Shown here: positions 65-63,792 of the stretch, piece by piece
Layout of the letters: each line of letters opens with the position of its first letter
Numbering within the stretch: position 1 is the first letter of the stretch
Assembly: GCA_043825875.1 (NCBI GenBank)
Contig: JBDRRF010000041.1
Span: 35,888 to 99,887 of the forward strand
Reading direction: 5' to 3'
Source: Pseudomonadota bacterium
Lineage (GTDB): Bacteria > Desulfobacterota > Desulfobacteria > Desulfobacterales > RPRI01
Length of the DNA stretch: 64,000 nucleotides
The notes under the pieces: model-generated
What the model saw: the letters and a program-made list of their open reading frames with translations, nothing else
What the model was told of the DNA's origin: nothing
The model's database searches: none
Program-made: the position numbers and the translations under genes

Positions 65-826
65 CTACATTCTTAAGCCACCATTGATACTGTAATCCTG
101 ACCTGTTATCCAATTGGCATCTTCAGAGGCCAGAAAAGCGACCATAGCTGCTATCTCCACCGGCTCTCCAAGCCTCCCTAATGGCACCGCAGATACATAT
201 TTGTCCTGGATACCCGAAAATTTAGCCATAGCCCTAGCAAGTGCCGGAGTATTAACCGGTCCCGGAGAAATACAATTGACAGTAATGCCATCTGCGGCCA
301 ATTCCAGGGCAATCGCCCTTGTGAACCCTGCTACTGCCGCCTTACATCCGGAATAAATAGAATGATAAGCAGTACCATGTTTGCCGGAATCCGATCCTAT
401 ATTGATGATCCTGCCTTTTTTCTGCTCAAGCATTTTGGGGATGACAGCTTTGCAGCACAAAAGGGTACCTATAAATAATATATCGGTTTCCGTTTTCCAT
501 GACACCAGATCAGTTTCATGAAAACGTTTAAAAGAGTAATCATCGGCCTGAGGACCGTGACAGTTGACCAGGATATCCACGCGACCGAATTTGGCAATGC
601 TCTTTTTAACCATCTCACTAACATCATTACTACTGGTTACATCAACTTTAATCGCCAGCGCTTTGCCGCCGGATTTATTTATTTTTTCTGCTCCTTTTTC
701 TGCTTCTTCTTTGTGCACATCCGTCAAAACAACACTGGCGCCTTCTGCAGCCAGCATTGTGGCAATGGCGAGTCCTATGCCCCCGGCCGCCCCTGTGATT
801 ATGGCTACTTTATTTTCAAGTCGCAT
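65..826 (-). CDS. SDR family oxidoreductase (FabG/BadH-like)
   Basis: TGAAGGIG Rossmann motif, YSGCK catalytic motif, NCISPGPVNT; the GSDSG...YSGCK region resembles 2-hydroxycyclohexanecarboxyl-CoA dehydrogenase-type SDRs. Confidence 0.9.
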   Translation of the reverse strand: MRLENKVAIITGAAGGIGLAIATMLAAEGASVVLTDVHKEEAEKGAEKINKSGGKALAIKVDVTSSNDVSEMVKKSIAKFGRVDILVNCHGPQADDYSFKRFHETDLVSWKTETDILFIGTLLCCKAVIPKMLEQKKGRIINIGSDSGKHGTAYHSIYSGCKAAVAGFTRAIALELAADGITVNCISPGPVNTPALARAMAKFSGIQDKYVSAVPLGRLGEPVEIAAMVAFLASEDANWITGQDYSINGGLRM

Positions 827-925: not shown

Positions 926-1999
926 CTAAGCAGCTGAAGGTGCTCCACTCTCCAAGCTCATAACAGTCCTGCCCCATTCAACATAGCTCAATATATCCGG
1001 GATTTGAACACTTCGCCCATCAGAAAGAACAACACTTCCGCTGGTTCTCGCATTGAGCCCATAACGCATGTTATAGCCTTTTTTATTTACTACGCAATAT
1101 ATCCCTCTTCCTCCGGAGCCCACAATCATGTCCACACCACCGCCCGTTGATTTCATATTAACATGCCAGCGCACCGGGACTTGCATACCTGTCTCAGGGT
1201 CTGTCCATAATTCCAGTTCATCCATGGTGATCTCATTATGGCTGAAGGGGATCTCCTGGTCATCCACATAAACGCGTCCATAACTGACCCCGGCTTTCGG
1301 CATGCAGAAAAGAAAAATCTGTACAGACCCGCTAAGGCACCATATATATGTATAAGGCTCCCGTATGAGTTCCATGTGATCATAGCTATGCCCAAAGGTC
1401 ATTTGGTCATGAATGCCATAAGCTTTTTCGAGTGTGTATACCTTGCCCTTTACTGTTATTGTGCCTTCGACCCAGCAACGCTGCTCATAACCGGCTCGGG
1501 TGGTTGTAGGTAAGTCGGGCCATAGCCCATAGCAACGGGAAGCATTGCCTATTCCGCCCAGAGTCAAATTACAATCCACTCCAAGATGTTCGCCTTTAGC
1601 CTCCCAATAGGGTGGTCTGGAGATGAACTGTCGGTTGCCGGCCTTCCAGATTATATGGTCAGGTTTTTGAATAATTTGAACTTTGCCTGTCCATTCAGAG
1701 GCATCCAGGCGGTTGCCAACAAAGAAACTATCGTGCATCCTGCCCTGTTTATCCTGGGGAACCATCACTAAAGTAGTCTGGTTCATCATAGCGTCATCGG
1801 CCTTCCATTTCCCGTTCCGCCCTCCTCCGACATGCCACGCGCCAACACCCAAAGCAATGTCATAACCTTCTGACTCTCCCATTACCAGGACACCGTTAAG
1901 CTCCATGAAGTCACTTCCCTGATCCTTAGGCAATTCGGCCACATGACTCAGGTCTTCGCTCAGTTGCACATCGCTCGTTGCTTCTCTTTTTTCCGCCAT
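926..1999 (-). CDS. Uncharacterised beta-rich protein, probable CrtC/AttH (lipocalin-like) fold; paralogue 1 of 3
   Basis: ATG at 1999 with GGAG RBS. Shares RPPYWE.KGEH.G, GYEQ, W.DP.TGMQ.P.RW and YVEWG motifs with 43455-44513 and 62716-63792. Confidence 0.7.
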   Translation of the reverse strand: MAEKREATSDVQLSEDLSHVAELPKDQGSDFMELNGVLVMGESEGYDIALGVGAWHVGGGRNGKWKADDAMMNQTTLVMVPQDKQGRMHDSFFVGNRLDASEWTGKVQIIQKPDHIIWKAGNRQFISRPPYWEAKGEHLGVDCNLTLGGIGNASRCYGLWPDLPTTTRAGYEQRCWVEGTITVKGKVYTLEKAYGIHDQMTFGHSYDHMELIREPYTYIWCLSGSVQIFLFCMPKAGVSYGRVYVDDQEIPFSHNEITMDELELWTDPETGMQVPVRWHVNMKSTGGGVDMIVGSGGRGIYCVVNKKGYNMRYGLNARTSGSVVLSDGRSVQIPDILSYVEWGRTVMSLESGAPSAA

Positions 2000-2413: not shown

Positions 2414-3433
2414 TTACTTCTGTTGGACATTAGGCAAATAGCCCATAAGCTTTACCTGGTCGCCCTCGGTTATGATGGTCATCGAACGTGCGCCAACAAT
2501 GATTGCTTTTTTATCACCCAGAAACTCAAGTCCGCTGAACCAGGCAAGTTTTATATCAATAGAGGTTTCCATTTGCTGCCAGGTTTTTCCACCGTCTTGG
2601 CTAGTCATAATCGCCCCACGGTCTCCTGCTGCAATGCAAAAATCACCCTGCGCTCTAACTTCATAAAACGTTGGCAACTCCCCTTTATCATCAGGTGCTA
2701 TGGTTATTGTTTTCCAGGTTATGCCGCCGTCTTCCGTCCTTAGCACAGTGCCGCCCAAACCTACCACAACCCCTTGCGTCTTCGAAGAAAAAGATATCCC
2801 GAACAAAGTGTTTTCAGTTCCGGACTCCTGAAGACTCCAGGTTTTACCTCCATCCTTAGTGTACAATATTGTGCCGAACTCTCCGGCCACCCAACCCTCT
2901 TCTTCATCATTAAAGACCATGCTGTAAAAAATAACATCCTTTGGATATGTATTGTTCACCCAGGTCTTTCCGCCGTCTTCCGTATAAAAAATTGTTCCCC
3001 AATCGCCTGTGGCTACACATTTCTCCGGGCTCAGGGCTTTTGCCGTAAACAGGTGCTTTCTTTCAGGTGCAGTCTGCTTGTTCCAGGTCTTACCGCCATC
3101 AGTTGTATGAAGAATAGTACTGCCTTTCCCTACAATCCATCCCACCTTGGGATTACAAAAGGAAACGGATAAAAGCATCATTTTCGTACCGGCATCCTGA
3201 TCCTCCCAGTTCAAACCTCCGTCTAAGGTATGCTGGATATTTCCCCGAGCGCCCACAGCCCAACCTTCTTTCTCATTTACAAAACATAATGAATACATGC
3301 TATCCTTGAACCTTTGTTTTGCGGACGAAGCAAAAGAAAGGCCGCTTTGAAATATGAATAATGCAGACAGCAATACCAGGATAATAAGTTGGGTACTTTT
3401 CCATTTCATCTTATTTTCAATCCCTATCTTCAT
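2414..3433 (-). CDS. YCF48/BNR (Asp-box) beta-propeller periplasmic protein
   Basis: Signal peptide and repeated T.DGG.TW Asp-box motifs; lies next to an RND gene. Confidence 0.9.
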   Translation of the reverse strand: MKIGIENKMKWKSTQLIILVLLSALFIFQSGLSFASSAKQRFKDSMYSLCFVNEKEGWAVGARGNIQHTLDGGLNWEDQDAGTKMMLLSVSFCNPKVGWIVGKGSTILHTTDGGKTWNKQTAPERKHLFTAKALSPEKCVATGDWGTIFYTEDGGKTWVNNTYPKDVIFYSMVFNDEEEGWVAGEFGTILYTKDGGKTWSLQESGTENTLFGISFSSKTQGVVVGLGGTVLRTEDGGITWKTITIAPDDKGELPTFYEVRAQGDFCIAAGDRGAIMTSQDGGKTWQQMETSIDIKLAWFSGLEFLGDKKAIIVGARSMTIITEGDQVKLMGYLPNVQQK

Positions 3434-3475
3434 AGATTTTGTTCCTCTCTGTGATTACGTATTTGATCCTGTGCT

Positions 3476-3516
3476 GTTACCGGGGTAATAAAGATTAAAA
3501 TCTGTACCCCGGCAAC
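3476..3516 (-). other. Intergenic stem-loop between the RND and YCF48 genes
   Basis: GTTACCGGGGTA...TACCCCGGCAAC inverted repeat. Confidence 0.4.
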
Positions 3517-3543
3517 GCAATGCAATGGCAATCTGTTCTGATA

Positions 3544-5955
3544 TCAGGCCCTGTACTTGGGCAATATTTTGTCCGGACCTATAATTGATACCAGAGCCGG
3601 CAGTACCGTCAGCGCCCCCACCATATTGGCAACCAGCAGGAAGGCTAATAGTATTGCCATCTCGGCCTGAAATTTGAAATCGGCGAATACAAAGAAAATA
3701 ACAGAAATAACCAGGGTTAAGGACGTAAAAATGATCGCCTTACCTGTTGAAGTAATCGCCATGTAACGGGCTTTTCTGTAATCACCGTAGCTGAACTGGT
3801 ATTCTTCCGACAGGCGGCTCAAAATATAGATGCCGTAGTCCACACCTATTCCCACACCTACCGAAGCCACAGGCAGGGAATTAATGTTTAAGTCAATCCC
3901 CAGCCCAAGCATCAAAAGATCACTTAAAACCTGCGATACAACAAGAGGGATAAACAAGACCAGCGCACCCCAGAATGTCCGATAGGCAATTGTGCAAAAC
4001 AGGAATGTAACGCTAAAAATGAGCGAGATATTTATCCAGTAAGACCATTCCACCTCCTCATTAACAGCGGCTAAAATTCCAAGAATGCCTCCGGCCAAAC
4101 GGAATTTTATATGCTCGGACGGATTATCATTGATATATGTCTTGAGAGTCGATATGGCTTTGGTAATAACTTCATTATTGTAATCGGCGAAGTAAAGGGT
4201 TACGGCCGCATTCTTTTTATCTCCGGAAATGAAGCGATCCATGCTTCCGCCGGTTGATGATCCTGCTACCAATCCTAATACACTTGCGACATCGTATTTT
4301 TTTTCGGGTAACATGGCCCACTTGGGATGACCGTCGTGATAACTCCTAAAAACTTGTTTTAACATGTCGCTGATCGTAACGGCCCCTCCAACTTGGGGTA
4401 TTTCGTTGGTAGCATAAATGCCCATCTCATCAATAAGCCTGATGGTGTCAGCGTTAGCAATCGCTCCTTCCTTATCGCCTTCAGCTACAACAACCATCTG
4501 ACTGGAACCGATGAAATCACTGTTAGCCTTTTCAGCAGCAATATTATAGGGATGATCAGAATAAAGGATTGCCTTACCGGCGCTGGTATCTCCTACTTTC
4601 AAATGTTTTTGCGTTATATAACCGCCACCTAAGATAACTATAATAACTACAGCCAGGACAATCCACTTCCGAAACCCCTGAGTCAGGGAGATAAGAAACT
4701 CACCAATCTTTATGTATATCTTATCACCGGGACGCATTGTGATCTCTCTTAGTTTCTCACGCGCCGTTTCCTTGTCCAGACCTGCAAGCTCTCCCTTCTT
4801 TAAATGCTTGGCCCGAGGCGGCGGCAGGAGTGAAACCAGAACAGGATGCATAACTATCGAGCTGACATAGATCGAGATAATCCAGAAACTACCGTAGAAG
4901 GCCAGATTCCGCATCAAAGGGATGCTGGCTACGGCAATGGTGAGTACCCCCAGACCATCGGTGACAAGTCCCAGAATACCGGGCTTGTAAAGATAGCCGT
5001 AAGCGCTGATGATGGCCTGCTTCTGCTCCCCGATAGCGGCGTATTCCTCATGATAGCGTTCCATGGACTGGACCGAGTGGCTCAAGGCTCTTGCCGATAA
5101 AAGCAGCGGTATTACCAGAACCAATGGGTCAACGTTGATTCCAAGCGCTGCCGCAAAACCCAGGCCCCAAATAGCGCTGACCAATGCTGAAATAACGGGT
5201 ATGAATATGCCCATGAAGCTTCTAAAATACCACCACAGCATGATGAGCATTACTATCGCTGTTACGATGAAAACATTATAAAGCTGAGGGACATAGTGGG
5301 CTATCCAGGCATAAAGCATAGGATAGCCTGTAATATACAGGGTGTGATTCTCATCTTCTACTTCAGACTTGATCTTTTGCATCTCATTGAATAGATTATT
5401 CAGGTCCAGGCCTTCTTCCCAGAACCCGGCGGCAATCAATGATGCTTTATCATCCATGCTGACATATACGCCACGGACTCCTTCATTGCTATAAACTATT
5501 TCCTTTAATTTTAAAAGATCTTCCTTAGACTCGGGTATAGCTCTTACTATTGGATTAGACCTGAGGCCATCATTACCCACACCGAAATTTTTCAACCGTG
5601 GATGAGTAAGAGATATAATCTGTAAATTATCCACCCCTTCTACGGTCATTACAAATTTTGTAATTTTATCAATCTTTTTGATGGTTTTGGTATTATATAT
5701 ATCCCCATCTTTTACCTCGAGAATTATACTCATCAAATTCGCGGTACCAAACATTGTGCGGTATTCCTTGTAAAGCTGGATGTACTCATGTTTGGGAGGG
5801 TAAAGATCGAAAAAATCGGTATGGATTCTCAGGCTGAAGCACTTATAGCCGAAAAATAGGGTGCCAATAATGATTAAGGTTAACATCAGAATCGGATGGC
5901 CCACATGATATTCGACCAATTTCAACCAAATTGTCTTATTGCCCTTATTTGTCAT
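3544..5955 (-). CDS. RND/MMPL-family transporter permease
   Basis: About 800 aa, two halves each with a large periplasmic loop and TM bundle, GIGVDYGIY motif, GAGGA RBS. Confidence 0.92.
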   Translation of the reverse strand: MTNKGNKTIWLKLVEYHVGHPILMLTLIIIGTLFFGYKCFSLRIHTDFFDLYPPKHEYIQLYKEYRTMFGTANLMSIILEVKDGDIYNTKTIKKIDKITKFVMTVEGVDNLQIISLTHPRLKNFGVGNDGLRSNPIVRAIPESKEDLLKLKEIVYSNEGVRGVYVSMDDKASLIAAGFWEEGLDLNNLFNEMQKIKSEVEDENHTLYITGYPMLYAWIAHYVPQLYNVFIVTAIVMLIMLWWYFRSFMGIFIPVISALVSAIWGLGFAAALGINVDPLVLVIPLLLSARALSHSVQSMERYHEEYAAIGEQKQAIISAYGYLYKPGILGLVTDGLGVLTIAVASIPLMRNLAFYGSFWIISIYVSSIVMHPVLVSLLPPPRAKHLKKGELAGLDKETAREKLREITMRPGDKIYIKIGEFLISLTQGFRKWIVLAVVIIVILGGGYITQKHLKVGDTSAGKAILYSDHPYNIAAEKANSDFIGSSQMVVVAEGDKEGAIANADTIRLIDEMGIYATNEIPQVGGAVTISDMLKQVFRSYHDGHPKWAMLPEKKYDVASVLGLVAGSSTGGSMDRFISGDKKNAAVTLYFADYNNEVITKAISTLKTYINDNPSEHIKFRLAGGILGILAAVNEEVEWSYWINISLIFSVTFLFCTIAYRTFWGALVLFIPLVVSQVLSDLLMLGLGIDLNINSLPVASVGVGIGVDYGIYILSRLSEEYQFSYGDYRKARYMAITSTGKAIIFTSLTLVISVIFFVFADFKFQAEMAILLAFLLVANMVGALTVLPALVSIIGPDKILPKYRA

Positions 5956-6188
5956 CAATCATTCCTCACAAAAATTATTGTTATCTTCACCAAGGATAGC
6001 CATGAAGCTTAGGCGAACTTAATCCCAGAAAAACAACCATATACTTTATCGATATGCAGATCTGTACATCCCACCGGGGATTATAGCTAAATCCAGACGA
6101 AGGTCAAAATAGGGTTACTCTTACCTAACTGAATTCATACCTACACAAAACAATAAATGTAATTTACTAAAACTTCTTAAAAAAGTTT

Positions 6189-6241
6189 GGGGGCCTCTTA
6201 TATGCCTGGGTTTAAAACCCGGAGGTATGAAATCGGCCCCC
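6189..6241 (-). other. Conserved intergenic stem-loop (DUF1329 to RND), copy 1
   Basis: GGGGGCC...GGCCCCC stem; an equivalent structure lies at 25481-25531. Confidence 0.5.
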
Positions 6242-6291
6242 GCAATAGCCTATCGTTAATCCGTTCAGTTAAACATTGATTAACGGCCCTT

Positions 6292-7623
6292 CTATTTGGA
6301 CATGCGCATTATGTATTCTTTGTTGAATATTTTTGGCGACAATCTGGAAAGAGGCATAAACATGGAGCTATTTTCCTTATTCACAAAGTCGTTTTGGACC
6401 CATCCGGAAGTAGCATGGCGCGCCTTCTCGTCAATTGTCATCTGAATATCACGTATCCCTACGTTGTCCCGCCCCGATGGCGTTACGGTCTTGGTATATA
6501 CGGCGACACTCCAGGTACGGAAGGCCCCCGTCTTGTCGTGTATTTCCTTCATGAAGATAACGTCGGTTTCCTTATCCATGTAATTGATATGCAAGCCCCA
6601 GGCATAATAGGGATCTTTAGGCATCTGCTCCATCACAATGACTCTCCTTGGTACCCAGACTATATTGAGCAGAGCCCATTTGGCGCCTTTCCAGTTAGGA
6701 TCCTGAAAACCGATCTTGATGGGGGCGTAATTAAAGTGATAGGTGCCGTCCGGATCTTCCGTGGTGTGGCGTAAATCGACTTGTGAAAATGGGCAGAGTA
6801 TTGTCTTTTCTCCCACAACCTTCCAGTCCATCCATGTGTTTTTCCCGTCCCACATAAAACCCAGATCCTGCCAGGCGTCAGAGCCGAAATATGGGTCGGA
6901 ACGTACAACACCGGATGACTGCCGTACCCGGCGTATAGATGGAACATAAGCATAAGTGGTTACATCACCATCATCCATATAATCAAAGATTAACTGATTT
7001 ATTCCAAACATATCAAAAGGTTCCATATTTAAAGAGATTGACATTTTGATATAATTGTTGGGGTTGTTGGTAATTTCCTGTCCCGGCGGACGGCCTGTCA
7101 TCATAAGCTCGAAACTATTGGTCCATATATACCTGTGTTCACCTTGTTTATCATCTATCCAGGTAACCTTGTTCTGATAATGTTCACCCTGAATACGATA
7201 TTTATTCCATTGGAAATTATACATGATCTTGTCGGCATACTTGGGATCTTTGGGATCAAGATGGGGGAAGGGCCGGCCATAGATATTGTAAAATGGAATT
7301 TTCCCCGTCTTCTTATCTATTAAATGCCCAGTGGCATCGACTTCGAATTTTCCGGCGTTTTTCTCACTGGCTTCCAGGAATTTATCATCATACTTATACT
7401 CATAATTCAATTTAGGTGCAGTATGCAGGACGAAATCGCCCCTTTCAACAGCACGGTACAGAGCCGGAACCAGAAGGTCTTTGTATTGGGCGCAGTTGCT
7501 CTTGTCGATTACCTTAGCGAGTTCTTCGGCAGCAGACATAGAAACGCCACCTAAAAACATTATCAATGCCAGAAACAACGGCAATATGAAAAATTTTGTG
7601 CAACTTATTGTTTTTTTTCTCAC
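6292..7623 (-). CDS. DUF1329 domain periplasmic protein (LolA-like)
   Basis: GTG start at 7623 with AGGAGG RBS, signal peptide, AYVPSIRRVR...RSDPYFGSD and PKDPYYAW motifs; sits between DUF1302 and RND genes. Confidence 0.85.
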   Translation of the reverse strand: MRKKTISCTKFFILPLFLALIMFLGGVSMSAAEELAKVIDKSNCAQYKDLLVPALYRAVERGDFVLHTAPKLNYEYKYDDKFLEASEKNAGKFEVDATGHLIDKKTGKIPFYNIYGRPFPHLDPKDPKYADKIMYNFQWNKYRIQGEHYQNKVTWIDDKQGEHRYIWTNSFELMMTGRPPGQEITNNPNNYIKMSISLNMEPFDMFGINQLIFDYMDDGDVTTYAYVPSIRRVRQSSGVVRSDPYFGSDAWQDLGFMWDGKNTWMDWKVVGEKTILCPFSQVDLRHTTEDPDGTYHFNYAPIKIGFQDPNWKGAKWALLNIVWVPRRVIVMEQMPKDPYYAWGLHINYMDKETDVIFMKEIHDKTGAFRTWSVAVYTKTVTPSGRDNVGIRDIQMTIDEKARHATSGWVQNDFVNKENSSMFMPLSRLSPKIFNKEYIMRMSK

Positions 7624-7690
7624 TTTTTCCTCCTTTATAGCTTTCCCTTTTATAGAAGAACTTGCTGAATAATTTTCCATAATTTCATCA

Positions 7691-9163
7691 TTACCAGCTA
7701 TAACCAACTTTTGCGGTAAGTTCGCTTGTAGGAACAAATCCAGAATAGCCTGACCTGGCCGTCTTGTCTCCCAGGAAGGCCTGCAGAGCAAAGTTAACAT
7801 AAAGATTGCCGTTTATCTGCCAGTTTAAAATAGGATGAATCATCCAGGATGCTCCTCCTGCTCCTTTCCGTCCGGGGGCGTAGTTCATAACAATCATAGG
7901 AGCAATCCTGCCTTCGTACCAGCTCCACCCAATGTTAAGACCGAAGACATCGTAATCCTTTAGCTTGTAAGTACCAGGTTTTTCGAGAAGAGCCTTATCC
8001 CATTCATTGATTCTCTCGTGTGCCCACTCAAAGCCGAAGCTTGTTCTCTCATGATCGGTGATAAAGGGGACCATAATCTTCTTGTCAAGATACATTGCCC
8101 ACCTGGTAGTTGGCTTGTAGGCAAAGGTTTCTAAACCTCCGGTTATTTCTTTGCTGGCTCCAAAGCCATTGCGTGCGATTGGATCTGCTGAATGATGGCC
8201 AAACTCACCCCTGACAACAAGGTCAATAGGCGTAACATTATAACTGAAATACATGCCGTAAACATGCTGTATATTGTGGGTCATATACGCAGCCATGTCA
8301 GAAAAACGTAACACGGTGCCGGCATCATTGTTTACATCCCTGAAATAAGCAAAGGAAATACTTAACCTCTCAAAGTCAGCAGTTAACTTCGCACCGTACT
8401 CACTTTCATTCGTAGGTACTTTCTGTTGGACGTTAAACGCTTTTAAGCCGCCAAACAGAATACTTACATAAGGAGCGTTCTGATTACTGTCAATCGGCCC
8501 GAATTGTGCCGGGCGGATGTCGGGAACCCAGAGAAAATCAAAATTAAGGGCCAAACCTTTCATAGCCGGAACGCTGTAATTTAAACGGGTCATATATAAA
8601 GGTATTTTTACATCATCAGGATTTTGGAAAAACAACTGATAGGAATTATCCTTGGGATTGATAACATCCACAATAGTTGTGGTGCCACCCGCCTCGCCCC
8701 AGGACACAAGCTGCCTGCCAGGCCTCAAGAAAGCACTGCCCAAAGCCCCGCTATATACAAAATCAACAAAAGCCTCACGTAAATCTTTCTCAAATTTGAC
8801 ATCATCCTTGCCGTAGTCAAAGCGCGTCAGTCCTCTATTTTGAACAATGTCATGATATTCATTCCCACGTAAATCGTATATCGAGTCATAAGCCCCGCGA
8901 AAGGTCAAATGAACCTTAGAAACTGAGAAAGGTCCAGCCTCCATACTGTCAGGATAAATGTCAATATCGAATTTTAAGGTATTTCTCTGCTGAACCCCTT
9001 CTACCTGGTCGAAAAAACCGTTCTGGATACCTGTTGTATCACGCAGAACAAAGTTAGATTCGAAATAACCATGAAAGCTAGTTTCCGCCATTACCTCTGC
9101 TGAAAACATCAGTAAAATGGACGCTATTGCAACAAAGTATAAAAATCTTCTTTTCCTAGGCAT
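7691..9163 (-). CDS. DUF1302 family outer-membrane beta-barrel protein
   Basis: Signal peptide, LREAFVD, GRQLVSWGE and DVINPKD motifs, C-terminal aromatic (YSW). Confidence 0.85.
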   Translation of the reverse strand: MPRKRRFLYFVAIASILLMFSAEVMAETSFHGYFESNFVLRDTTGIQNGFFDQVEGVQQRNTLKFDIDIYPDSMEAGPFSVSKVHLTFRGAYDSIYDLRGNEYHDIVQNRGLTRFDYGKDDVKFEKDLREAFVDFVYSGALGSAFLRPGRQLVSWGEAGGTTTIVDVINPKDNSYQLFFQNPDDVKIPLYMTRLNYSVPAMKGLALNFDFLWVPDIRPAQFGPIDSNQNAPYVSILFGGLKAFNVQQKVPTNESEYGAKLTADFERLSISFAYFRDVNNDAGTVLRFSDMAAYMTHNIQHVYGMYFSYNVTPIDLVVRGEFGHHSADPIARNGFGASKEITGGLETFAYKPTTRWAMYLDKKIMVPFITDHERTSFGFEWAHERINEWDKALLEKPGTYKLKDYDVFGLNIGWSWYEGRIAPMIVMNYAPGRKGAGGASWMIHPILNWQINGNLYVNFALQAFLGDKTARSGYSGFVPTSELTAKVGYSW

Positions 9164-12114: not shown

Positions 12115-13719
12115 ATGTCACATAAAATTGTAAAACAACGAAATAACGTTTCGCCTGAAAATGTCAGACTTTTCAAATCCCTTGGATCTATAATCAAAGC
12201 ATACCGGTTATGGCGTGGGATAAGCCAGGAGGTATTCGCAGAATCAATTAAAATCAGTGTTCGGCAATTACAGAATTGGGAAGCCAAACGTAGCCATGCC
12301 AGAATTGAGAATCTCCACGACATTTCCGAGTTCACAGGAATCCCGATGCAGGCTTTGGTGTCTCTTAATTCGGACCAACCTGTCTGGTATTGCATACGGA
12401 AACGTCGTTTTACATACTCTTTGATCGAAACAGAACAGTTTACCTCTCAGAAATTATTCAGGCCAAATGAAAAGCCGGAAGACCATTCTTTCCTTAATAT
12501 AATCCCAATTAAAAAAGAAAAACACCTTGATATGATTCTTTCATGTCACCGGGATCTTTACGGCACGGAAAAAACATTGCACCACGATGTATTTATGGAA
12601 ACAGCAAGGCGATTTCCTGACTTAAATGTCATTATCGTTGATTATTTTGGCCATTATGTAGGTCATCGAATCTGTTTGCCTTTAAAAATTGATGTATATC
12701 AAGCACTTATAAAACAAAAGACCATCGAGAACTATATAACAATAGAAATGATTAGTGACATTATAAAGCTGGGGGAAGGGGTTTTTTTTAATTATTCTAC
12801 CTTTTCTGCTAATGTAAACACATTATACAAAATGATTTTAGATGGCGTAGGATTCCTTTCCAAAATAAAACAAAAAGAAAAATACTTTCTTGCCACTCAT
12901 ACAGTCACAAAAGAAACATCGATCATACAAAACAATATGCAAATGAATTATGTGCGTAATTATCCTAATCCAAACGATGATGAAGTTTGCCCGGTAATCT
13001 ATGAGACAAAATTGGATTTTCAACTGAGACCTGACGGGCCTTTTGGATGGATGTTGCATCCAACAACAAAGAAAGCGTCTACAAATAAACTGATTAATGG
13101 AATCAAACAGAAACAATCGCCGGCCAATTCTATTCAAAACTCAGAGAAAATCTACCATCCAAGTGAAAGCAACCGGAAATCCAAAAAAACAGAAAACTGT
13201 TCGCCTTTAATAGTTGATGGATTGCCTTTAATAGTTGATAAAAAGAAGAATGATAAACATTCTGAAAAAGCGGAAACTTGCAAAAACCCCAAATGCACTT
13301 TATATGGTAAAATTAAACAAGGAAATATAGTCTCAAACGGGACATACCGGACACAAAAAGGAACGCCGGGCCGCAGATTCTTGTGCAAGGAATGCGGCAA
13401 ATCATTTTGCAGCAGAACAGGAACCATCTTTTATGACATACGTTCTCCGGAAGAAAAAGTTTTAAAAGCTCTTAAACTTTTGGTTAAAGGAATGCCTGTG
13501 CAGCATGTTGTAAAACTTTTGGGAGTTAAGTTTCATACGGTTCGCCACTGGCTTGAAGTTGCCGCTCTGCAAAAGGAAAAGATAAATGCCATTCTTATAA
13601 ATGAGCCGGATATTTCGCGGGCCGAATTAAACACTTTGTGGGACTTTGTCAAAACAAATTCTCTTCGCAAAAGAGCCCTTCTATGCAGGGCGAAAAATAA
13701 ATCCTATGCAACGGAATAG
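12115..13719 (+). CDS. Putative transcriptional regulator: XRE HTH + GNAT-like domain + IS1-family InsA-like Zn-ribbon/HTH
   Basis: N-term SQEVFAESIKISVRQLQNWE; C-term CKNPKC...RRFLCKECGKSF...GTIFYD...GMP...LLGV...TVRHWL; paralogue at 29288. Confidence 0.75.
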   Translation: MSHKIVKQRNNVSPENVRLFKSLGSIIKAYRLWRGISQEVFAESIKISVRQLQNWEAKRSHARIENLHDISEFTGIPMQALVSLNSDQPVWYCIRKRRFTYSLIETEQFTSQKLFRPNEKPEDHSFLNIIPIKKEKHLDMILSCHRDLYGTEKTLHHDVFMETARRFPDLNVIIVDYFGHYVGHRICLPLKIDVYQALIKQKTIENYITIEMISDIIKLGEGVFFNYSTFSANVNTLYKMILDGVGFLSKIKQKEKYFLATHTVTKETSIIQNNMQMNYVRNYPNPNDDEVCPVIYETKLDFQLRPDGPFGWMLHPTTKKASTNKLINGIKQKQSPANSIQNSEKIYHPSESNRKSKKTENCSPLIVDGLPLIVDKKKNDKHSEKAETCKNPKCTLYGKIKQGNIVSNGTYRTQKGTPGRRFLCKECGKSFCSRTGTIFYDIRSPEEKVLKALKLLVKGMPVQHVVKLLGVKFHTVRHWLEVAALQKEKINAILINEPDISRAELNTLWDFVKTNSLRKRALLCRAKNKSYATE

Positions 13720-21913: not shown

Positions 21914-22939
21914 TTATTTTGCCTGAGATCCGACAACCGGTATAGCACCCATGACTTTTATCTGGTTGCCCTCTGTTATAATAGCCGCAGAACGTGTGCC
22001 CACAATAAAACCTCTGTTGCCACCAAGAAGAGCAGTACCGGAAAACCAATTAAGTTTTACCTCCAATGGCACGGGAATGGAGCTCCAGGTCTTGCCGCTA
22101 TCGTTGGTTGTGACAATCGTACCACGATCTCCGGCAGCGATTCCGTAATTCTCGCCCAATTTAACATCATAAAGGGCTTGCCCCTCTGTCGATTCGCCGG
22201 TATTGGCTTTAATAGGCTGCCAGGTATGACCTCCGTCATCTGTTATCAGCATGATGCTGCTCAAACCAACGGCTACCCCGTGCTGCTTTGAAGAAAAGGA
22301 TATCCCAAAAAGGGTCGTTTCCGTGCCTGACTTTTGGGGAGACCAGTTCTTACCACCGTCTTCCGTATGCAGTATCGTCCCGAATTCCCCGGCCATCCAG
22401 CCTTCCTCTTCCCCCTTAAAATCGATAGCGTATATGATAACATCCTCCGGGTAGCTCCTGTCCTCCCAGGTCTTGCCACCGTCTTCCGTATAGAAAACAG
22501 CTCCCCAATCCCCTGAGGCCCAGCACTTTTGAGGGCTTACGGCCTTAACCGCAAGTAGTTGTTTTCTTTTGGGAGCCTTCTGCTCCTCCCAGGTTTTGCC
22601 GCCATCAACAGTATGAAATATTGTCCCGGATTTTCCTACAACCCAGCCTGCTTTGGAATCACAGAAAGAAATGGACAAGAGAAGAATTTCCGTTGCTATG
22701 GTTTGCCTTTCCCAGTTCCTTCCTTCATCTGTAGTATGATACACAGAGCCCCTGGCGCCTGCGGCCCATCCCTCCTTGTCACCGACAAAACATACTGAAT
22801 AAAGGTGATCGCCATAGACTTGCTTTTCTTCCGTAGCATAAACCGAATTGCCGGTGAAAATCAGCAACACTGATAACAATACTATTGTAACAAAAGGGAT
22901 TCTTTTCTGTTTCATCTTTTTCCTCGCCACCCTCTTCAT
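21914..22939 (-). CDS. YCF48/BNR beta-propeller periplasmic protein, copy 2
   Basis: Asp-box repeats, signal peptide, paralogue of 2414-3433. Confidence 0.9.
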   Translation of the reverse strand: MKRVARKKMKQKRIPFVTIVLLSVLLIFTGNSVYATEEKQVYGDHLYSVCFVGDKEGWAAGARGSVYHTTDEGRNWERQTIATEILLLSISFCDSKAGWVVGKSGTIFHTVDGGKTWEEQKAPKRKQLLAVKAVSPQKCWASGDWGAVFYTEDGGKTWEDRSYPEDVIIYAIDFKGEEEGWMAGEFGTILHTEDGGKNWSPQKSGTETTLFGISFSSKQHGVAVGLSSIMLITDDGGHTWQPIKANTGESTEGQALYDVKLGENYGIAAGDRGTIVTTNDSGKTWSSIPVPLEVKLNWFSGTALLGGNRGFIVGTRSAAIITEGNQIKVMGAIPVVGSQAK

Positions 22940-35663: not shown

Positions 35664-36725
35664 CTACAAGCCCAAAAGATTTCGCAATTTTTCATAGTGG
35701 GTCATGGTAATAAAGCCTTTTGCTCTTTTTGATCTGGCAATATATCTTGCATCCTGCTCCATACGGGTAAAAAAGATAGCCATGCGCCAGGTAGCAAAAA
35801 CCTCGTAGTAAAAGAGATTCGCAACTTTTCTGTTTGTTACCTTCTCATAGTGAGCAATAGTCTCTTTCATATCGGGAAGTCCCGGCAAGCGATGAAAAGG
35901 CGAATCGGGACGTCCCACACTGGTGGCCCAATCCATATGCACGAACCAACCCAGATCAGTTTCCGGGTCGCCGAGAAGAACCATTTCCCAGTCTATAACC
36001 GCAGCAATTTCACCTTCGTTGATGATCATGTTTCCCAACCTGGCATCACCCCAGCATAACGAAATAAATTTTGGCTCAAAACTATTCTTCAAAAGCCAGT
36101 CTCTGGTTGCTTTAAGCACCGGTGGCATCGGCTCATTATTGAGCGCATAAATCTCATCATAATAAGCAATCTGCCGCTCCATAAAGTTTGTACCTGCCCG
36201 TGGAACACCCAAAAAGTTTAAGCCTGCTTTCTCCCAGTCAAGGGTATGAATATTTACTATCGTATCCACGGCATTCCACCAAATACGGGCTTTTTCTTCC
36301 CCTGTTGCCTCAAAAAGCTGCCCGGCAATATGGTAGGGAGGAAATTCTCCCGGAATCCATCCCTCAACCCGTTCCATAATATAGAAAGGAGCGCCCAACA
36401 CTGATTCATCCTCTTCCAGCCAACGGGCACGGGGAACAGGCACTACTGTATCCCATAATCTTTCGAGCAGCATATACTGCTTTTTCATGTCATAATGATA
36501 CTTTGGAAACACCGAAATGTCTTTGGGAGGCCAACGAATCACCAGGCTTTCCAGCTTCGTATTCCCCCCTTGCTGCCACTTTAGATCGATAAAAAAAGTC
36601 TCATTCATACCGGCGCCAGGTCTTTTCAACGGTGCAAGTATAAGTTCGCTATCACTGGGCAGTTTGCTCTTAAACCAAGCCAGGAGATTAACCCGCATAG
36701 CCTCCAGATCTAACTCTTCCTTCAT
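35664..36725 (-). CDS. Phosphotransferase family protein (APH / ACAD10-11 kinase-like)
   Basis: VPVPRARWLE, LGAPFYIMERVEG, WGDARLGN, DWEM...GDPETDLGW. Confidence 0.88.
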   Translation of the reverse strand: MKEELDLEAMRVNLLAWFKSKLPSDSELILAPLKRPGAGMNETFFIDLKWQQGGNTKLESLVIRWPPKDISVFPKYHYDMKKQYMLLERLWDTVVPVPRARWLEEDESVLGAPFYIMERVEGWIPGEFPPYHIAGQLFEATGEEKARIWWNAVDTIVNIHTLDWEKAGLNFLGVPRAGTNFMERQIAYYDEIYALNNEPMPPVLKATRDWLLKNSFEPKFISLCWGDARLGNMIINEGEIAAVIDWEMVLLGDPETDLGWFVHMDWATSVGRPDSPFHRLPGLPDMKETIAHYEKVTNRKVANLFYYEVFATWRMAIFFTRMEQDARYIARSKRAKGFITMTHYEKLRNLLGL

Positions 36726-41154: not shown

Positions 41155-43446
41155 CTATTTTCTCAAAGACCTAAAAGACCCTTTTTCTCCAAATTTACGG
41201 CAACTCCGGTGACCACAGGTTTTGCTGTCGTATATCTTTTCCACTTCCACGAGAACATCACAATAAGCGGCATTGGGTTCGAAAATCATAGCTTGCACCG
41301 GATTTATCATATCATGGGTCAATTCATTTATATGGCCTTCTATATACTGTTCAGGCCACCAGCCTTCATCAATATTGACCACACCCGGCTTAATATCCTC
41401 ACTCAGCGCTGCTTTTACTTTCACCTGTCCAAGGTTGTTGAAGACACGAACAATATCTCCATCCTTTAGGTTACGATACCCGGCATCTACCGGATTGATC
41501 TGAAGCATGGGTTCGGGATCATTTTTCATCAGAACAGGATAATTTCCCATCATTGTGTGAACCCGATACCGGGGATGGGATGTCAGAAGAGAAAGCGGGT
41601 ATTCTTTCGCCTTTTTGCTGTAAACGCTTTCTACCGGTTCTATGTAACACGGCAATTGCTGACCGGCTGTTTTCAGCCTCTCCAAATAGAATTCAACTCT
41701 ACCCGTTGGAGTTCTTAGTTTCTGAGCTTTATCAATTATTCTTTCCGGCACGGGCCCGGCTTTCAACCTCTCAAGAGAGATGCCTTCTAATAACGGATGA
41801 GGAGCAGCAAGAATTTCATCCAGATATTGCTCTTCCGATTTATTAAAGTACTCTCCCAAATCCATCTTTTTGGCCAGTTCGGCAGCTATCATAAAATCAG
41901 GTTTCGTCTCATATAAAGGCTCTATTACTTTTTGCTGTAAATGCATATGGTTTGTCCAGCTTAACAGACCATAGTGGAAATCAGTGCATTCAAAGGAAGA
42001 ACTTACGGGAAAGACATAATCTGCATATCTGGCCGTTTCAGTCATAAAAAGGTCGGAAACAACTATTAGTTCCAGTTGAGGAAACAGCTTTTCTATGATC
42101 CTTTTCCGGTTAGGAGACTGACTGACAAAATTATTGGATGCGAACCAGAGCGCTTTTATGGGAAAAGGTTTCTGAGAAGCGATCTGGTCGAAAACCGACA
42201 TTACAGGTATATTGGTACAACGTCCGGCCGGGTTGGTAAAACTACTGCTCATCTCAATAAAGGAGGTTGGTATATGCAGATTTAAGTTGCCGGTGATAGA
42301 TGCCAGTGTGCTTAGTGCCCGGCATGTCAAATCGCCATAAAACGTCCGCTGCAATCCCCAACCCCGATGGATAGAAGCAGGTTTTTTTATCGCATATTCA
42401 ATAGCCAGATTCCTGATAATATCGACCGCAATCTCAGTAATTCCAGATACCCTTTCCGGGGTATATTCTTTAACCATGTCAGCCAGCAACTGAAATGCCG
42501 GCCGGCATTCAATACTTCCTGCAAAGCAACTTCCGGTAAGCGAAGGTTTTACCCCTTGAGTATCAGCAACCTGTACTTCTCCGGTATTTGCATCAAGCAC
42601 CATAAATTTTTGTAAGCTGCCATCTTCTTTTATATCCTGCTCCCTAAGCAGCATACCGTTATCAATTCTCACCAGCAAAGGGCCTACAGTGCTTTCGGTT
42701 ATAAATTGTTTATCTTGCAGTTTTTTCTCCAGAATTATGTTAATCATCGACAATGCCAGCGCCGTATCGGTTCCGGGCCTTATGGGGATATACCAGTCTG
42801 CAGCTCTTGAAACTGTGTTTGTGCGGCGGGGATCAATAGCAACAACTTTACAGCCTTTCTTTTTTGATTCCATAATTTTGCGCATGCGCCGCCAATCGGT
42901 TACATCGGGATTCTGACCCCAAACAATTGTAAGTTTAGGATTTTCTACGCGGCTAAGATGAGCATCGCCAAACATACAGCCGAAGGTAGCAATATCGGCG
43001 CAGGGTGCAGCCGAATCTCCTAAGCCGACCAGGCTCACCCTGCTTCCCTTAAGCAGGCTTGCCAGCCGCAAATAGCCACCCGCTTTTAGTGTTTCAGGAT
43101 ATCCTTTAACGACCCATGCAATTGACCGGGATTCGTATCTTTGTGCAATCCGCCTGAATCTGCCTGCAATATCTTCCATGGCTTCATCCCAGGCAATTCG
43201 CTCCCACTTGCCTTCTCCCCGTTTTCCCACACGTTTTAAAGGATAACGAAGACGGTCCTTGTGATAAATCAATTCTGCGGCTGCAAGGCCTTTTTTGCAA
43301 GCACCACGGTCAGAAGAGCAGGGCATTTCAGCAGGGCTGATTTTGATAATAACACCATTCTCGACTTCAACGGATAATCCGCATGCGTATACATCCATTA
43401 CATTACATACCGTTTGAATCACCTTTTTTTCACTTGCTTCATTCAT
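41155..43446 (-). CDS. Molybdopterin (bis-PGD) oxidoreductase, paralogue of 36827-39037
   Basis: Same motifs as the paralogue; ATG at 43446. Confidence 0.92.
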   Translation of the reverse strand: MNEASEKKVIQTVCNVMDVYACGLSVEVENGVIIKISPAEMPCSSDRGACKKGLAAAELIYHKDRLRYPLKRVGKRGEGKWERIAWDEAMEDIAGRFRRIAQRYESRSIAWVVKGYPETLKAGGYLRLASLLKGSRVSLVGLGDSAAPCADIATFGCMFGDAHLSRVENPKLTIVWGQNPDVTDWRRMRKIMESKKKGCKVVAIDPRRTNTVSRAADWYIPIRPGTDTALALSMINIILEKKLQDKQFITESTVGPLLVRIDNGMLLREQDIKEDGSLQKFMVLDANTGEVQVADTQGVKPSLTGSCFAGSIECRPAFQLLADMVKEYTPERVSGITEIAVDIIRNLAIEYAIKKPASIHRGWGLQRTFYGDLTCRALSTLASITGNLNLHIPTSFIEMSSSFTNPAGRCTNIPVMSVFDQIASQKPFPIKALWFASNNFVSQSPNRKRIIEKLFPQLELIVVSDLFMTETARYADYVFPVSSSFECTDFHYGLLSWTNHMHLQQKVIEPLYETKPDFMIAAELAKKMDLGEYFNKSEEQYLDEILAAPHPLLEGISLERLKAGPVPERIIDKAQKLRTPTGRVEFYLERLKTAGQQLPCYIEPVESVYSKKAKEYPLSLLTSHPRYRVHTMMGNYPVLMKNDPEPMLQINPVDAGYRNLKDGDIVRVFNNLGQVKVKAALSEDIKPGVVNIDEGWWPEQYIEGHINELTHDMINPVQAMIFEPNAAYCDVLVEVEKIYDSKTCGHRSCRKFGEKGSFRSLRK

Positions 43447-43454
43447 GACAAATA

Positions 43455-44513
43455 CTATAAAGCTCCGCTTTCCAAGGGCATGGCGCTCCGGCCCCATTCC
43501 AGATAGGTCATTACATCCTTGATCTCAATCTTTCTTCCATCGGGGAAAAAAGCATGACCATTGGAGCGCACCAGAAACCCGTGACGTATAGTGTAGCCTT
43601 TACGAGTCATGACACAAAAAGAACCCCGTCCTCCGGCAACCATGTTCATGTCTACAACTCCACCCGCCGAGTTCAGGTTGACATGCCACCGGATTGGGAT
43701 TTGCATGCCAGTCTTGGGGTCAGGCCACCATTCCAGTTCGTCTATGGCGATCTCACCCTTACCGAAGGGAATCCCTTGACCATCAACATAAACTCGACCA
43801 TACTCCATGCCTGAACCACGCTGCCTCCAGATGTAGGTCTGGATCGTGTCGTCAATAGCCCATATATAGTAGTATGGATCGACCATATTTTTCATATGAT
43901 CATAGGTCTCGCCAAAAGTGATCAAATCGTGAGCGGCATAAGCCTTATCGAAGGTATATTTTTTGCCGCCAACGGTTATCGTGCCTTCAGCCCAGCACTG
44001 TTGCTCATAACCCGCCCAAAGCGTTTTCTTTAAATCGGACAATGGCCCGTAAACACGGGTGGCGTTTCCCATTCCCCCTGCTATAAGGTCGCACTCAATT
44101 CCCATGTGCTCACCCTTTACTTCCCAGTAGGGAGGATGGTTGATGAATATGCGGTTCCCGTTTTTCCATACCACCCTGTCGCTTTCCGGCGTAATTTGAA
44201 TATCGCCTGGCCACTCTCTGGCATCCTGACGGTTGCCGATGTAGTCGTTATCATGCATCTGGTATCTTTCGTCATGGGGAATCATCTGAAAAGTAGTATG
44301 TCCGATATTTGCCCTGTCGACCATCCATTTTCCTTTTGGACCGCCTCCGACATGCCAGTTAATGGTTACCAGACACATGTCATAGCCCTGGGCTTCACCC
44401 ATAAACAGCGTACCATTAATCTCCATAAAATCCTTACCGGGAGGCAAATCCGCAACATGGCTTGTGTCCTCATACAATTGAACATCACTGATGCCTTTTC
44501 TTTTCGTTTCCAT
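43455..44513 (-). CDS. Uncharacterised CrtC/AttH-like protein, paralogue 2 of 3
   Basis: ATG at 44513 with GGAGG RBS; colinear with 926-1999. Confidence 0.7.
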   Translation of the reverse strand: METKRKGISDVQLYEDTSHVADLPPGKDFMEINGTLFMGEAQGYDMCLVTINWHVGGGPKGKWMVDRANIGHTTFQMIPHDERYQMHDNDYIGNRQDAREWPGDIQITPESDRVVWKNGNRIFINHPPYWEVKGEHMGIECDLIAGGMGNATRVYGPLSDLKKTLWAGYEQQCWAEGTITVGGKKYTFDKAYAAHDLITFGETYDHMKNMVDPYYYIWAIDDTIQTYIWRQRGSGMEYGRVYVDGQGIPFGKGEIAIDELEWWPDPKTGMQIPIRWHVNLNSAGGVVDMNMVAGGRGSFCVMTRKGYTIRHGFLVRSNGHAFFPDGRKIEIKDVMTYLEWGRSAMPLESGAL

Positions 44514-61655: not shown

Positions 61656-62570
61656 ATGTTTAACAAAACTTGTCTTTACGGTTTCATGATTCTTTTTATT
61701 GCCCTTGTTGCATATCCGGCCATGGCGGCAACGGATATTACCGTGCCTTCGAGCCAACAGTTAGAAAGTGGAACCGCTGCTGCCGTAGTTGATAATATGC
61801 AACTGCCGCCGGGATTCAACAATCCTAATCTTTCTGCAATTTGGATGCAGGAAAAACTCATGCTTGTTGTTTTTTTTATTGTACTCATATATCTTATTCG
61901 GAATAGCCGCCGTGCTAAGGAGCTGACTTTCGGCACGCTGCTGTTCATTGCCACAACAACCATGTTCTGGCAGGAACCATACGCTGATTGGGGCTGCTAC
62001 CTGCTATTCAATCCAAAGCTTACTCTTATGCCCTGGGGTTCTACTTTGTGGACTTCACCAAACAAGCCCTTGAATCTGATCTGGCAATATGGAGCTTTTT
62101 TCGCCGGCATATATTCTGTAATGTTATGGCTTGTCAGAAAACTGCATGCGCGGTATCCGCAATTGAGTAATCTCGGTGCGGTGCTTGTTATCGGTATTCC
62201 GATATTCTATCTCTTTGACTTGTTAGTGGAGGGACTTTGCGTAAAAAACGGCATTCACTCCTATATAAAACCTCTAATCGGCCCGGTGTTTGTTATGGCT
62301 AAGGGCAACTTTCCGCTTGTTTATCCGGTAGTGCCTTTCGTTTTTTATGCCGTAATTACCCTATGGGTGTTGAGATTGCGAGCTGCAAACGGGCATGTGC
62401 GATTCGAATCATCGTTCGGGGCGGAGCGTTTTGCTGCCGGTTGGCAGCGGGAACTGGTGCGTGTTATCATCTGGATTTTGGTCATGAATGGGCTTTACCT
62501 GCTTCTTTTCACGGGTCCTGCTGTTGCTATACGGGTGTTTCTTGGAGGGCCTTGCGCACTTGTGCCATGA
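61656..62570 (+). CDS. Spirocyclase AveC-like membrane protein
   Basis: Multi-TM protein with MFWQEPYADWGCYLLFNP...PW and FDLLVE...G..SY motifs recalled from the AveC-like family; N-terminal signal-like segment. Confidence 0.65.
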   Translation: MFNKTCLYGFMILFIALVAYPAMAATDITVPSSQQLESGTAAAVVDNMQLPPGFNNPNLSAIWMQEKLMLVVFFIVLIYLIRNSRRAKELTFGTLLFIATTTMFWQEPYADWGCYLLFNPKLTLMPWGSTLWTSPNKPLNLIWQYGAFFAGIYSVMLWLVRKLHARYPQLSNLGAVLVIGIPIFYLFDLLVEGLCVKNGIHSYIKPLIGPVFVMAKGNFPLVYPVVPFVFYAVITLWVLRLRAANGHVRFESSFGAERFAAGWQRELVRVIIWILVMNGLYLLLFTGPAVAIRVFLGGPCALVP

Positions 62571-62715: not shown

Positions 62716-63792
62716 ATGACAACAGAAAAAGAAGCCAGGACAAATGCCACGCTGGATGATCAACTCAGCTATAAAGAGACCCTGCCCAAGGGCGTTTCGT
62801 ATATGGAAAACAACGGCTTTTTGGTCATGGCCGAGACCGAGGAAGGAGAGGAGATTTCCTTTGTAAGTTGCATTTTCCGCGTGGGTGGCGGCAAGAAGGG
62901 CCCATGGCAGGTCGAGGACAAGTTTGTTGGACAAACCACTTTCCAGATCAAGCCCAAGGGATTTACAGGTACGATCAACGACCTCGATTTCATCAGCAAC
63001 CGCACTTGGGCGACTGACGACTGGAAAAGCGGCGAAGTCATCAAGACCGAGGATGCGGTGATCTGGAAGCTGGATAACTGGCAATACATCTGCCGCCCCC
63101 CCTACTGGGAACTCAAGGGTGAGCACATGGGCATTGAATTCGATCTGCTCTTAAGCGGTATTGGTGACGCCTCATTTCACAAAGGAATCTATGCCGATTT
63201 TGCTAAGAACAACGTTGCCGGCTATGAGGCTCCGCTGTGCTGCGAGGGCACCTTCAAAGTTGAAGGCAAGACTTACAAATTGAGGAAAGACAAATCTTTT
63301 GGTTGCCAGGAAAAGTTCACCCAACCGGCGTGGGATCTGGCCAAGGTGCTCAGAGGAGAGACCTACTACTGGATCTGGTGGGCGAACGAATCTGTGCGGA
63401 TCTTCATTTATTATTATCCCTCCGTGGGGAAAGCATATAGCCAAGTGATGGTCGAAGACCAGGAAGTGGACTTTTCCGAAAACGGCACAAGTAATATCAA
63501 GATGGAAGAACTGGAGTATTGGATCGATCCCAAGACGAGAATGCGGATTCCTGTCAAGTGGCACTTTACCTTAAAGTCGGCAAAAGGGGAGATCAATCTT
63601 GATGCATCGGCTGAGTCACGGACTTTTTATGGCTACCTGAGCGAATCCGGTGCCACCATGCATTACGGCCTGCATAGCCATAGTCTGGGCGAAATGAATT
63701 TAGCCGATGGCCGCAAGATTCCGCTTAAGGATATGCGTACTTACATCGAGCATGGCTGGTGTGCAATACCGTTGCCGGCCTTTGCATGTTAA
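62716..63792 (+). CDS. Uncharacterised CrtC/AttH-like protein, paralogue 3 of 3
   Basis: AGGAGG RBS; RPPYWELKGEHMG, GYEA, WIDPKTRMRIPVKW, YIEHGW. Confidence 0.7.
   Translation: MTTEKEARTNATLDDQLSYKETLPKGVSYMENNGFLVMAETEEGEEISFVSCIFRVGGGKKGPWQVEDKFVGQTTFQIKPKGFTGTINDLDFISNRTWATDDWKSGEVIKTEDAVIWKLDNWQYICRPPYWELKGEHMGIEFDLLLSGIGDASFHKGIYADFAKNNVAGYEAPLCCEGTFKVEGKTYKLRKDKSFGCQEKFTQPAWDLAKVLRGETYYWIWWANESVRIFIYYYPSVGKAYSQVMVEDQEVDFSENGTSNIKMEELEYWIDPKTRMRIPVKWHFTLKSAKGEINLDASAESRTFYGYLSESGATMHYGLHSHSLGEMNLADGRKIPLKDMRTYIEHGWCAIPLPAFAC

Follow-up and report, generated by a model that had tools for sequence, protein, structure and literature searches.

The locus raises the question of what several related genes without annotation do in it, and whether their products are enzymes at all. 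In the original prediction they were paralogues of a CrtC/AttH-like family, cofactor-free hydratases or enzymes opening O-heterocycles. The genes and the neighbours that bear on their interpretation lie as follows in the window (the whole stretch of DNA analysed, 64,000 nucleotides):

65..826, minus strand: SDR gene, downstream of copy 1
926..1999, minus strand: family copy 1 (P0001, 357 aa), a predicted CrtC/AttH-type double beta-barrel
2414..9163, minus strand: DUF1302-DUF1329-RND-BNR cassette, upstream of copy 1
35664..36725, minus strand: APH-family kinase gene, part of the gene run that includes copy 2
41155..43497, minus strand: bis-MGD Mo enzyme gene, its ORF overlapping the end of copy 2
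43455..44513, minus strand: family copy 2 (P0002, counted from the second Met), between an MFS gene and the bis-MGD Mo enzyme gene
61656..62570, plus strand: gene for an AveC-like membrane protein, immediately 5' of copy 3
62716..63792, plus strand: family copy 3 (P0003, 358 aa, QE type), with the AveC-like gene directly upstream

Every motif quoted for the three paralogues is found in all three ORFs at these coordinates, and pairwise BLASTP aligns them over their full length at 54%, 38% and 36% identity (E <= 8e-75), far beyond chance. Ribosome-binding sites stand just 5' of the ATG of copy 1 (AAGGAG) and 5' of the starts of copies 2 and 3 (AAGGAGG). The description as unannotated is accurate, with PF17186 staying below its threshold (25.3, 20.0 and 20.8 bits against a cut-off of 26.2) and no NCBIfam match. 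Copies 1 to 3 are intact genes under purifying selection: dN/dS is 0.10 for copy 1 against L021 and 0.14 against L022, 0.05 for copy 2 against L025, and 0.06 to 0.12 in four pairs for copy 3, that is 0.05 to 0.14 in all seven pairs with usable dS, while an eighth pair, to a gammaproteobacterial copy, is saturated. Their GC content of 49% to 50%, compared with 39% for the host genome, fits acquisition from outside and is no proof of it. Three RNA contig sets yielded only partial pieces of 35 to 59 bases, outside the gene, and are uninformative either way.

The three ORFs are real, and three is too low a count. A tblastn search of the whole host genome (G000) finds 14 full-length copies, 6 of them on the contig of the window, including one that ends about 0.9 kb before the window starts. 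The 14 copies are 30% to 94% identical to each other (median 39% over 91 pairs), and all of them lack a hydrophobic signal or membrane stretch, in line with the predicted absence of a signal peptide, by a crude hydropathy scan that is not SignalP (best N-terminal 11-mer <= 0.5, best 19-mer <= 1.2). A word-based database search gave 15 proteins, and HMMER, run over all 1.84 billion representatives, gave 130 matches at E <= 0.001 and 54 at E <= 1e-30. The family alignment used throughout (A3) holds 91 near-full-length sequences, namely 12 of the 14 genome copies and 79 database matches, and leaves out two copies 94% identical to copy 3, fragments and one protein of 517 aa.

Among 17 genomes of the genus including the host, 5 carry it with 6 to 14 matches each; put differently, 4 of the 16 other genomes have 6 to 14 matches (some of them fragments, and in G013 all 6 partial) and 12 have none. 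No match was found in 44 other genomes of the order, and no full-length member in 400 further genomes of the phylum, with at most five candidates scored per genome; 81 of these 400 gave partial matches, none scoring above 48 bits, and canonical AttH genes coincide with at least two of them. Relatives known by name comprise Desulfobacterium sp. N47, two metagenome-assembled records, Zhongshania, Spongiibacter and Pseudomaricurvus, and it is from gene content together with these relatives that we infer the host to be an anaerobe of the Desulfobacterales type. The Desulfobacterium sp. N47 copies (L028 and L039) are shortened or split, for which decay and assembly error are both possible. Of ten distant members that were looked up, names attach to four clusters and one fungal record (Mycobacterium sp., a Dehalococcoidia and a Chloroflexota bacterium, and the fungus Capronia) and five clusters have none; a plasmid of Novosphingobium resinovorum holds two distant copies amid TonB receptors, SDRs, an aldehyde dehydrogenase and a P450. 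One Novosphingobium copy (L105:29364-30578) begins with a twin-arginine-like leader and fungal-type members (P0114) with a hydrophobic one, so that some distant members may be exported. Copy 3 and its QE-type relatives cluster with six gammaproteobacterial copies (support 0.99; FastTree, 99 sequences, midpoint root), to which copy 3 is 68% to 72% identical. Our literature search lacked most subscription journals and the family has no searchable name; within that coverage it found no paper on the family, nor the structure papers of 25-phosphosteroid lyase (PSL) and kievitone hydratase.

The predicted double-barrel fold withstood the structural check by AlphaFold and Foldseek, which gave six full-length matches within the clan. 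An AlphaFold2 model built on A3 has a pLDDT of 95.8, a pTM of 0.93 and two all-beta domains. Foldseek ranks kievitone hydratase first (E 2.4e-10) and, at the top with it, CghA, Fsa2, AttH, Phm7 and PSL (E 2e-10 to 4e-7), and an independent structural aligner gives Z scores of 26.3 (2ich), 25.0, 24.4, 24.2, 23.4 and 20.2 (PSL), with the next match at only 9.6. The six matches align 268 to 291 residues at an rmsd of 3.2 to 3.7 A and about 9% to 12% identity, covering residues from about 10 to 347 of the model. Clusters of AttH, CrtC, Svf1 and Diels-Alderase proteins in the ESM Atlas reach TM values of 0.66 to 0.85. Profile comparison points the same way: hhalign matches the family to canonical AttH proteins, 29 of them (from 30 loci) taken as a profile, with a probability of 97.7 to 98.0 and E of about 2e-12, PF17186 matches 47 of the 91 members at E <= 0.01, and the two halves of the family align to each other (probability 80, E 1.4e-5). 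PDB sequence searches gave a single chance match with a 3-sequence profile and only 2ich (E 0.076) with the 91-sequence profile. The chain is thus modelled with high confidence as a duplicated CrtC/AttH double barrel over its whole length.

By this model the family belongs to the CrtC/AttH clan, within which it could not be assigned to CrtC, PSL, tocopherol cyclase or DUF7064/7065. Neither PF07143 (the Pfam CrtC model) nor PF14249 (tocopherol cyclase) matches any of the 91 members; PF23212 and PF23213 (DUF7064 and DUF7065) match neither copies 1 to 3 nor the host genome, and PF23213 matches 5 of the 91 members. Tocopherol cyclase is not listed among the solved structures matched, and Atlas feature neighbours include clusters of that name (0.95). 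The best structural match is the AttH-like protein NE1406 (2ich; Z 26.3, rmsd 3.2, 286 residues aligned), which shares with the family a profile-detectable relationship, the W-x-x-P...P-x-x-W region and the terminal Y-x-E. Unlike AttH, to which identity is 11%, the family has no PF07143 match and no signal peptide, shows a D-x-x-E-x-x-G pattern in place of EWWY, and exists in 14 copies, whereas PF07143 gives a single match in 37 of the 39 genomes of the order that have any; the two PF07143 matches of the host genome lie on contigs other than those of any family copy. Kievitone hydratase (7a0q and 7a0t; 7a0q is the top Foldseek match, Z 24.4) has the same double barrel, and with it, CrtC and the GDGT hydratase Hgs the family shares an acid at, or two residues from, the position of CrtC D268 and the lack of any visible cofactor motif. 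It differs from them in sequence (10% to 11% identity), in the loss of the Tyr before the acid, in using Glu more commonly than Asp there, and in its catabolic, multi-copy context; the matches include no structure of CrtC or Hgs, and these two were compared through papers only. The fungal Diels-Alderases CghA, Fsa2 and Phm7 resemble the family in fold (Z 23.4 to 25.0) but not in sequence (9% to 12% identity), and the conserved acids described below point to acid-base chemistry instead; no PKS or NRPS genes were seen in the window or the listed neighbourhoods of the copies. Hsh3, considered as a further relative, is an EthD protein (PMC12175502) and was set aside. Since no Pfam cut-off is reached and the true PSL homologue of related genomes is a different gene, we treat these proteins as a separate family, a real, undescribed and strongly expanded variant within the known CrtC/AttH clan.

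Three acidic residues stand out in the alignment and occupy these positions in copy 1:

1901..1903, minus strand: Glu33 of P0001, first strand of barrel 1; acidic in all 14 copies and in 81 of the 91 members
1406..1411, minus strand: His197-Asp198 of P0001, last strand of barrel 1; position 198 is acidic in all 14 copies and in 77 of the 91 members
977..979, minus strand: Glu341 of P0001, on the final strand of barrel 2; always Glu in the 14 copies, acidic in 54 of the 91 members

N96, R97, R298 and Y339 (P0001 numbering) are likewise kept in all 14 copies. Fourteen of the 91 members have no acid at 198, 88 have one at 198 or 341, 35 have all three acids and none has zero. The internal repeat pairs D198 with E341, E341 aligns by hhalign on the Glu of the AttH motif GYVE, and the family profile places acid 198 on the Asp of WLD in 2ich. 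The distance from Gly179 to the acid, scorable in 76 members, is 18 residues in 18, 19 in 53, 20 in 3 and 21 in 2; the corresponding Gly-to-Asp distance of AttH is 18 in 18 of 25 pattern matches (the other 7 are mis-anchored) and in 10 of 11 proteins of a second local AttH-like set. D268 of CrtC is essential together with Y266, H239 and W241 (PMC4717167) and has been modelled in the cavity between the barrels (PMC12402844). As judged from these alignments D198 is most likely the equivalent of this catalytic Asp, with two hhalign runs shifting it by two residues so that H197-D198 falls on the H-E after the AttH Asp. One of these two shifted alignments needs a two-residue gap inside a strand, and the shifted register would put the hydrophobic residue 196 at the D268 position, with the aromatic position 194 two residues before it; in the preferred register position 196 is I in 19, V in 18, C in 9 and L in 8 of the 91 members. 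The essential Tyr of CrtC (Y266, two before the acid) is not kept in the family in that register, and Glu is commoner than Asp at the acid position. What had been foreseen, that conserved acids sit at positions homologous to the catalytic acids of the clan, agrees with their conservation in all 14 copies and in most of the wider family.

The HD, HD and QE difference among copies 1, 2 and 3 is present in the sequences, but its proposed role as an active-site switch did not hold up, because D or E is kept in all 14 copies and only the preceding residue 197 varies (H in 8, Q in 4, R in 2). In a beta strand this residue would face the opposite way to acid 198, an argument from strand alternation also made in PMC4717167. 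At the corresponding motif position one of the PSL entries 9fzn and 9g4c has D and the other N, which we read as an inactivating change.

The conservation of these acids bears on whether the proteins are catalysts. A distinctly unlikely reading is that they are non-catalytic carriers which hold lipophilic substrates between importers and cytoplasmic oxidoreductases. It would suit many divergent copies adjoining unrelated enzymes and importers, the loss of copy 2 from an otherwise intact operon, the presence of Svf1-type clusters among the Atlas structure neighbours and the best structural match itself, since no activity is known for AttH NE1406, for which lipid binding has been proposed (PMC2954199). 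Catalysis accounts more easily for three acids retained in 14 of 14 copies down to 30% identity and for one symmetric acid retained in 88 of 91 members.

The CrtC/AttH fold serves several chemistries, being also used by Diels-Alderases, a lyase and one protein of no known activity, and precedents for acid-base reactions in the clan are kievitone hydratase and PenF (PMC6013536) and Hgs (10.1101/2025.10.20.683597). With about even confidence we propose that the family comprises cytoplasmic, cofactor-free general-acid hydratases, dehydratases or isomerases for lipophilic, probably isoprenoid-type substrates. An imported lipophilic compound would be the substrate, and water would be added, removed or shifted at a C=C or C-O bond. 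By analogy with the clan, the substrate would sit in the cleft between the two barrels, D/E198 would protonate the alkene or the leaving hydroxyl, and the carbocation would be quenched by water or lose a proton, with E341 or E33 as a base or acidity booster. The neighbouring genes suggest that the resulting alcohol or alkene would pass on to SDRs, aldehyde:ferredoxin oxidoreductases, flavoenzymes and Mo enzymes. Substrates would vary from copy to copy, isoprenoid or terpenoid/steroid-like compounds being the most plausible.

As described, each copy in the window has a different neighbour, an SDR gene beside copy 1, the bis-MGD Mo enzyme gene beside copy 2 and the AveC-like gene beside copy 3. 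Across the copies the neighbours comprise SDRs, aldehyde:ferredoxin oxidoreductases, old-yellow-type and CrtD-like flavoproteins, Mo enzymes and DUF1302-DUF1329-RND-BNR cassettes, and 4 of the 14 copies (C79, C97, C109 and C110) lie away from such genes. A fixed partner gene was sought in these neighbourhoods and none was found; the high-GC metagenome loci L106 to L108 were left out of this annotation for their noisy ORF calls. In G008 and G011 the operon is syntenic except that copy 2 is missing; G016 has it. The suggestion that the family may define the pathway is therefore not supported, because neighbours vary and copy 2 is absent in these two relatives. Nor do the neighbours name the substrate, as none of the immediate ones (22 + 16 proteins) reaches a curated NCBIfam cut-off; PDB searches with two of them gave amine-dehydrogenase-type and unnamed oxidoreductase entries.

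The cassette at 2414..9163 has the same make-up as AmeABCD of Castellaniella, which is tied to monoterpene metabolism and described there as an exporter (PMC6394551). Cassettes of this type have been tied to phenanthrene, cresol and steroid clusters, and export of a cell wall component has been put forward as a function as well (10.1101/072470); we infer that they import hydrophobes here. A second complete cassette lies at 21914-28583 of the window. DUF1329 has 16, 29, 21, 33 and 4 matches in the five carriers of the family, a single match in one non-carrier and no match in the other 11 of the 17 genomes of the genus, and AveC-like genes occur in 4 of the 5 carriers and in no other of these genomes. 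As the genomes are kin and not independent, this co-occurrence of the family with importers and AveC-like genes is a description and not a test.

The same neighbourhoods bear on a fairly unlikely alternative, the acid-base opening or rearrangement of O- or N-heterocycles (chromans, cyclic ethers, ketals, epoxides or imines) to give an aldehyde or ketone for neighbouring aldehyde oxidoreductases. Aldehyde:ferredoxin oxidoreductase-like genes lie at most three genes from 4 of the 14 copies, and an AveC-like gene stands directly upstream of a copy in six places, that is at copy 3 and in five further ones (G000:C16, G008:C18, G008:C96, G011:C42 and G016:C80); this arrangement does not extend to the gammaproteobacterial genomes, of which 3 of 5 have AveC-like genes and never beside a copy. 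An amine-dehydrogenase-like gene converges on the copy at 5 of 6 gammaproteobacterial loci and has a 70% identical homologue in the host, but a close orthologue occurs in only 2 of the 17 genus genomes. The Atlas clusters named tocopherol cyclase would fit ring chemistry, as would PenF, a CrtC-domain protein that rearranges an epoxide (PMC6013536); the lack of any PF14249 match in the family speaks against this alternative. Because its chemistry overlaps with that of the proposed hydratases, dehydratases or isomerases, sequence does not separate the two.

Several further arrangements were seen in and around these loci. The segment L043:1533-15817 (G000:C89) is a cluster in which a kinase is accompanied by AveC-like genes, by two flavoproteins resembling phytoene dehydrogenase and by two more members of the clan, one AttH-like with the motif GDHEW and one of 329 aa, unassigned. 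At 48891-57853 of the window, two large subunits of the xanthine-oxidase family (best model 4-hydroxybenzoyl-CoA reductase alpha, below its cut-off) and small subunits adjoin an HGD-D pair, and the CrtD-like flavoprotein at 45895-47427 has a signal-peptide-like hydrophobic stretch before its FAD motif; other CrtD-like genes come after family copies on C41 and C16. A sigma-54 activator gene (59853-61406) is divergent from the AveC-like gene and copy 3 and has five paralogues of 77% to 83% identity beside other catabolic cassettes. XRE regulators with a C-terminal IS1-like Zn-ribbon/HTH part are encoded at 12115-13719 and 29288-30901, and blastp gives 10 matches to them across the host genome. 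At L008, L009 and L031 QE-type copies are followed, a few genes on, by a CbbQ/NorQ-type AAA gene and its vWA-like partner, and in the first 9 kb of G000:C22, C28 and C31 phytoene-dehydrogenase-like genes stand beside genes that look, by their N-termini, like those for corrinoid proteins, methyltransferases and glycine-cleavage H proteins.

A last alternative is suggested by the APH-family kinase gene that shares a gene run with copy 2. Sterolibacterium denitrificans removes water from a tertiary sterol alcohol by means of a kinase together with PSL (PMC8449060, PMC11061730), and the family could by analogy be phospho- or sulfo-ester lyases paired with the APH kinase, as 25-PSL is with 25-HSK, which we consider highly unlikely. 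PSL (9fzn, 9g2i and 9g4c) is an anaerobic catabolic member of the clan, it matches the family fold over full length (Z 20.2, 268 residues aligned) with its acid on the same strand, and the Gly-to-acid spacing of 21 in the QE type equals that read from the PSL alignment. The kinase of the window has 9fsg, labelled only as APH-like, as its best PDB match (E 3e-41), and its close homologues in the genus occur in the same four carriers as the AveC-like genes. Of a true PSL homologue the host genome keeps only a 3' fragment, which leaves its two kinases without an intact PSL partner. The fragment lies at G000:C89:11906-12073, before the second kinase, and the region 35664-36827 of the window is without the PSL-homologue gene that G011 and G016 place between Mo enzyme and kinase.

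Relatives argue against this pairing, since they have a separate gene that matches PSL at E 5.5e-35 and stands directly upstream of the kinase: G008, G011 and G016 encode a PSL homologue of 363 aa directly upstream of APH kinases. The R-D-[RH]-S-W-G motif is present in PSL and these homologues and absent from the family, which reads [HRQ]-[ED]-x without S-W-G. The 91-member profile matches no PSL entry up to E 10 and a PSL-like alignment only weakly (probability 41), and PSL comes last among the six fold matches. The numbers do not fit either, with 14 copies against 2 kinases and none of the 14 adjoining either host kinase. Adjacency to the kinase is a trait of the local PSL homologues and not of S. 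denitrificans, where PMC8449060 describes no candidate lyase close to 25-HSK. At the copy-2 operon the two genes are not complementary, G000 having copy 2 alone, G011 PSL alone, G016 both and G008 neither, and a PSL homologue occurs in only 1 of 5 gammaproteobacterial carriers. The family is accordingly not the PSL orthologue, the gene tied to the kinase being the one that matches 9fzn, and a role as stand-in for PSL became less likely.

That the fold and the likely chemistry are of a known kind limits the surprise of the preferred reading, in which the family hydrates, dehydrates or isomerizes lipophilic compounds. Few enzymes are known by which anaerobes activate branched lipophilic carbon without O2, mostly from denitrifiers, and the CrtC/AttH clan has recently given new chemistry (the Hgs preprint of 2025 and the PSL structures released in 2026). 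The family has no Pfam or NCBIfam model and is rare (130 among 1.84 billion representatives), yet the host has 14 copies under selection. They form a ready panel of natural variants with clear mutation targets, and single- or double-copy relatives exist in cultured marine Gammaproteobacteria and Novosphingobium, so that the function of the family is testable; there is also demand for cofactor-free alkene hydratases in biocatalysis. It is likely that the family helps its host to break down oily molecules without oxygen, a role that is predicted. More speculatively, and in our estimation rather improbably, the symmetric carboxylates D198 and E341, one per barrel, might constitute a toolkit for tertiary and allylic alcohols, independent of ATP and O2, that dehydrates tertiary alcohols or moves them to primary positions without the kinase-plus-lyase route, and up to 14 copies might then allow one lineage of anaerobes to live on a wide range of fossil and detrital isoprenoid lipids.
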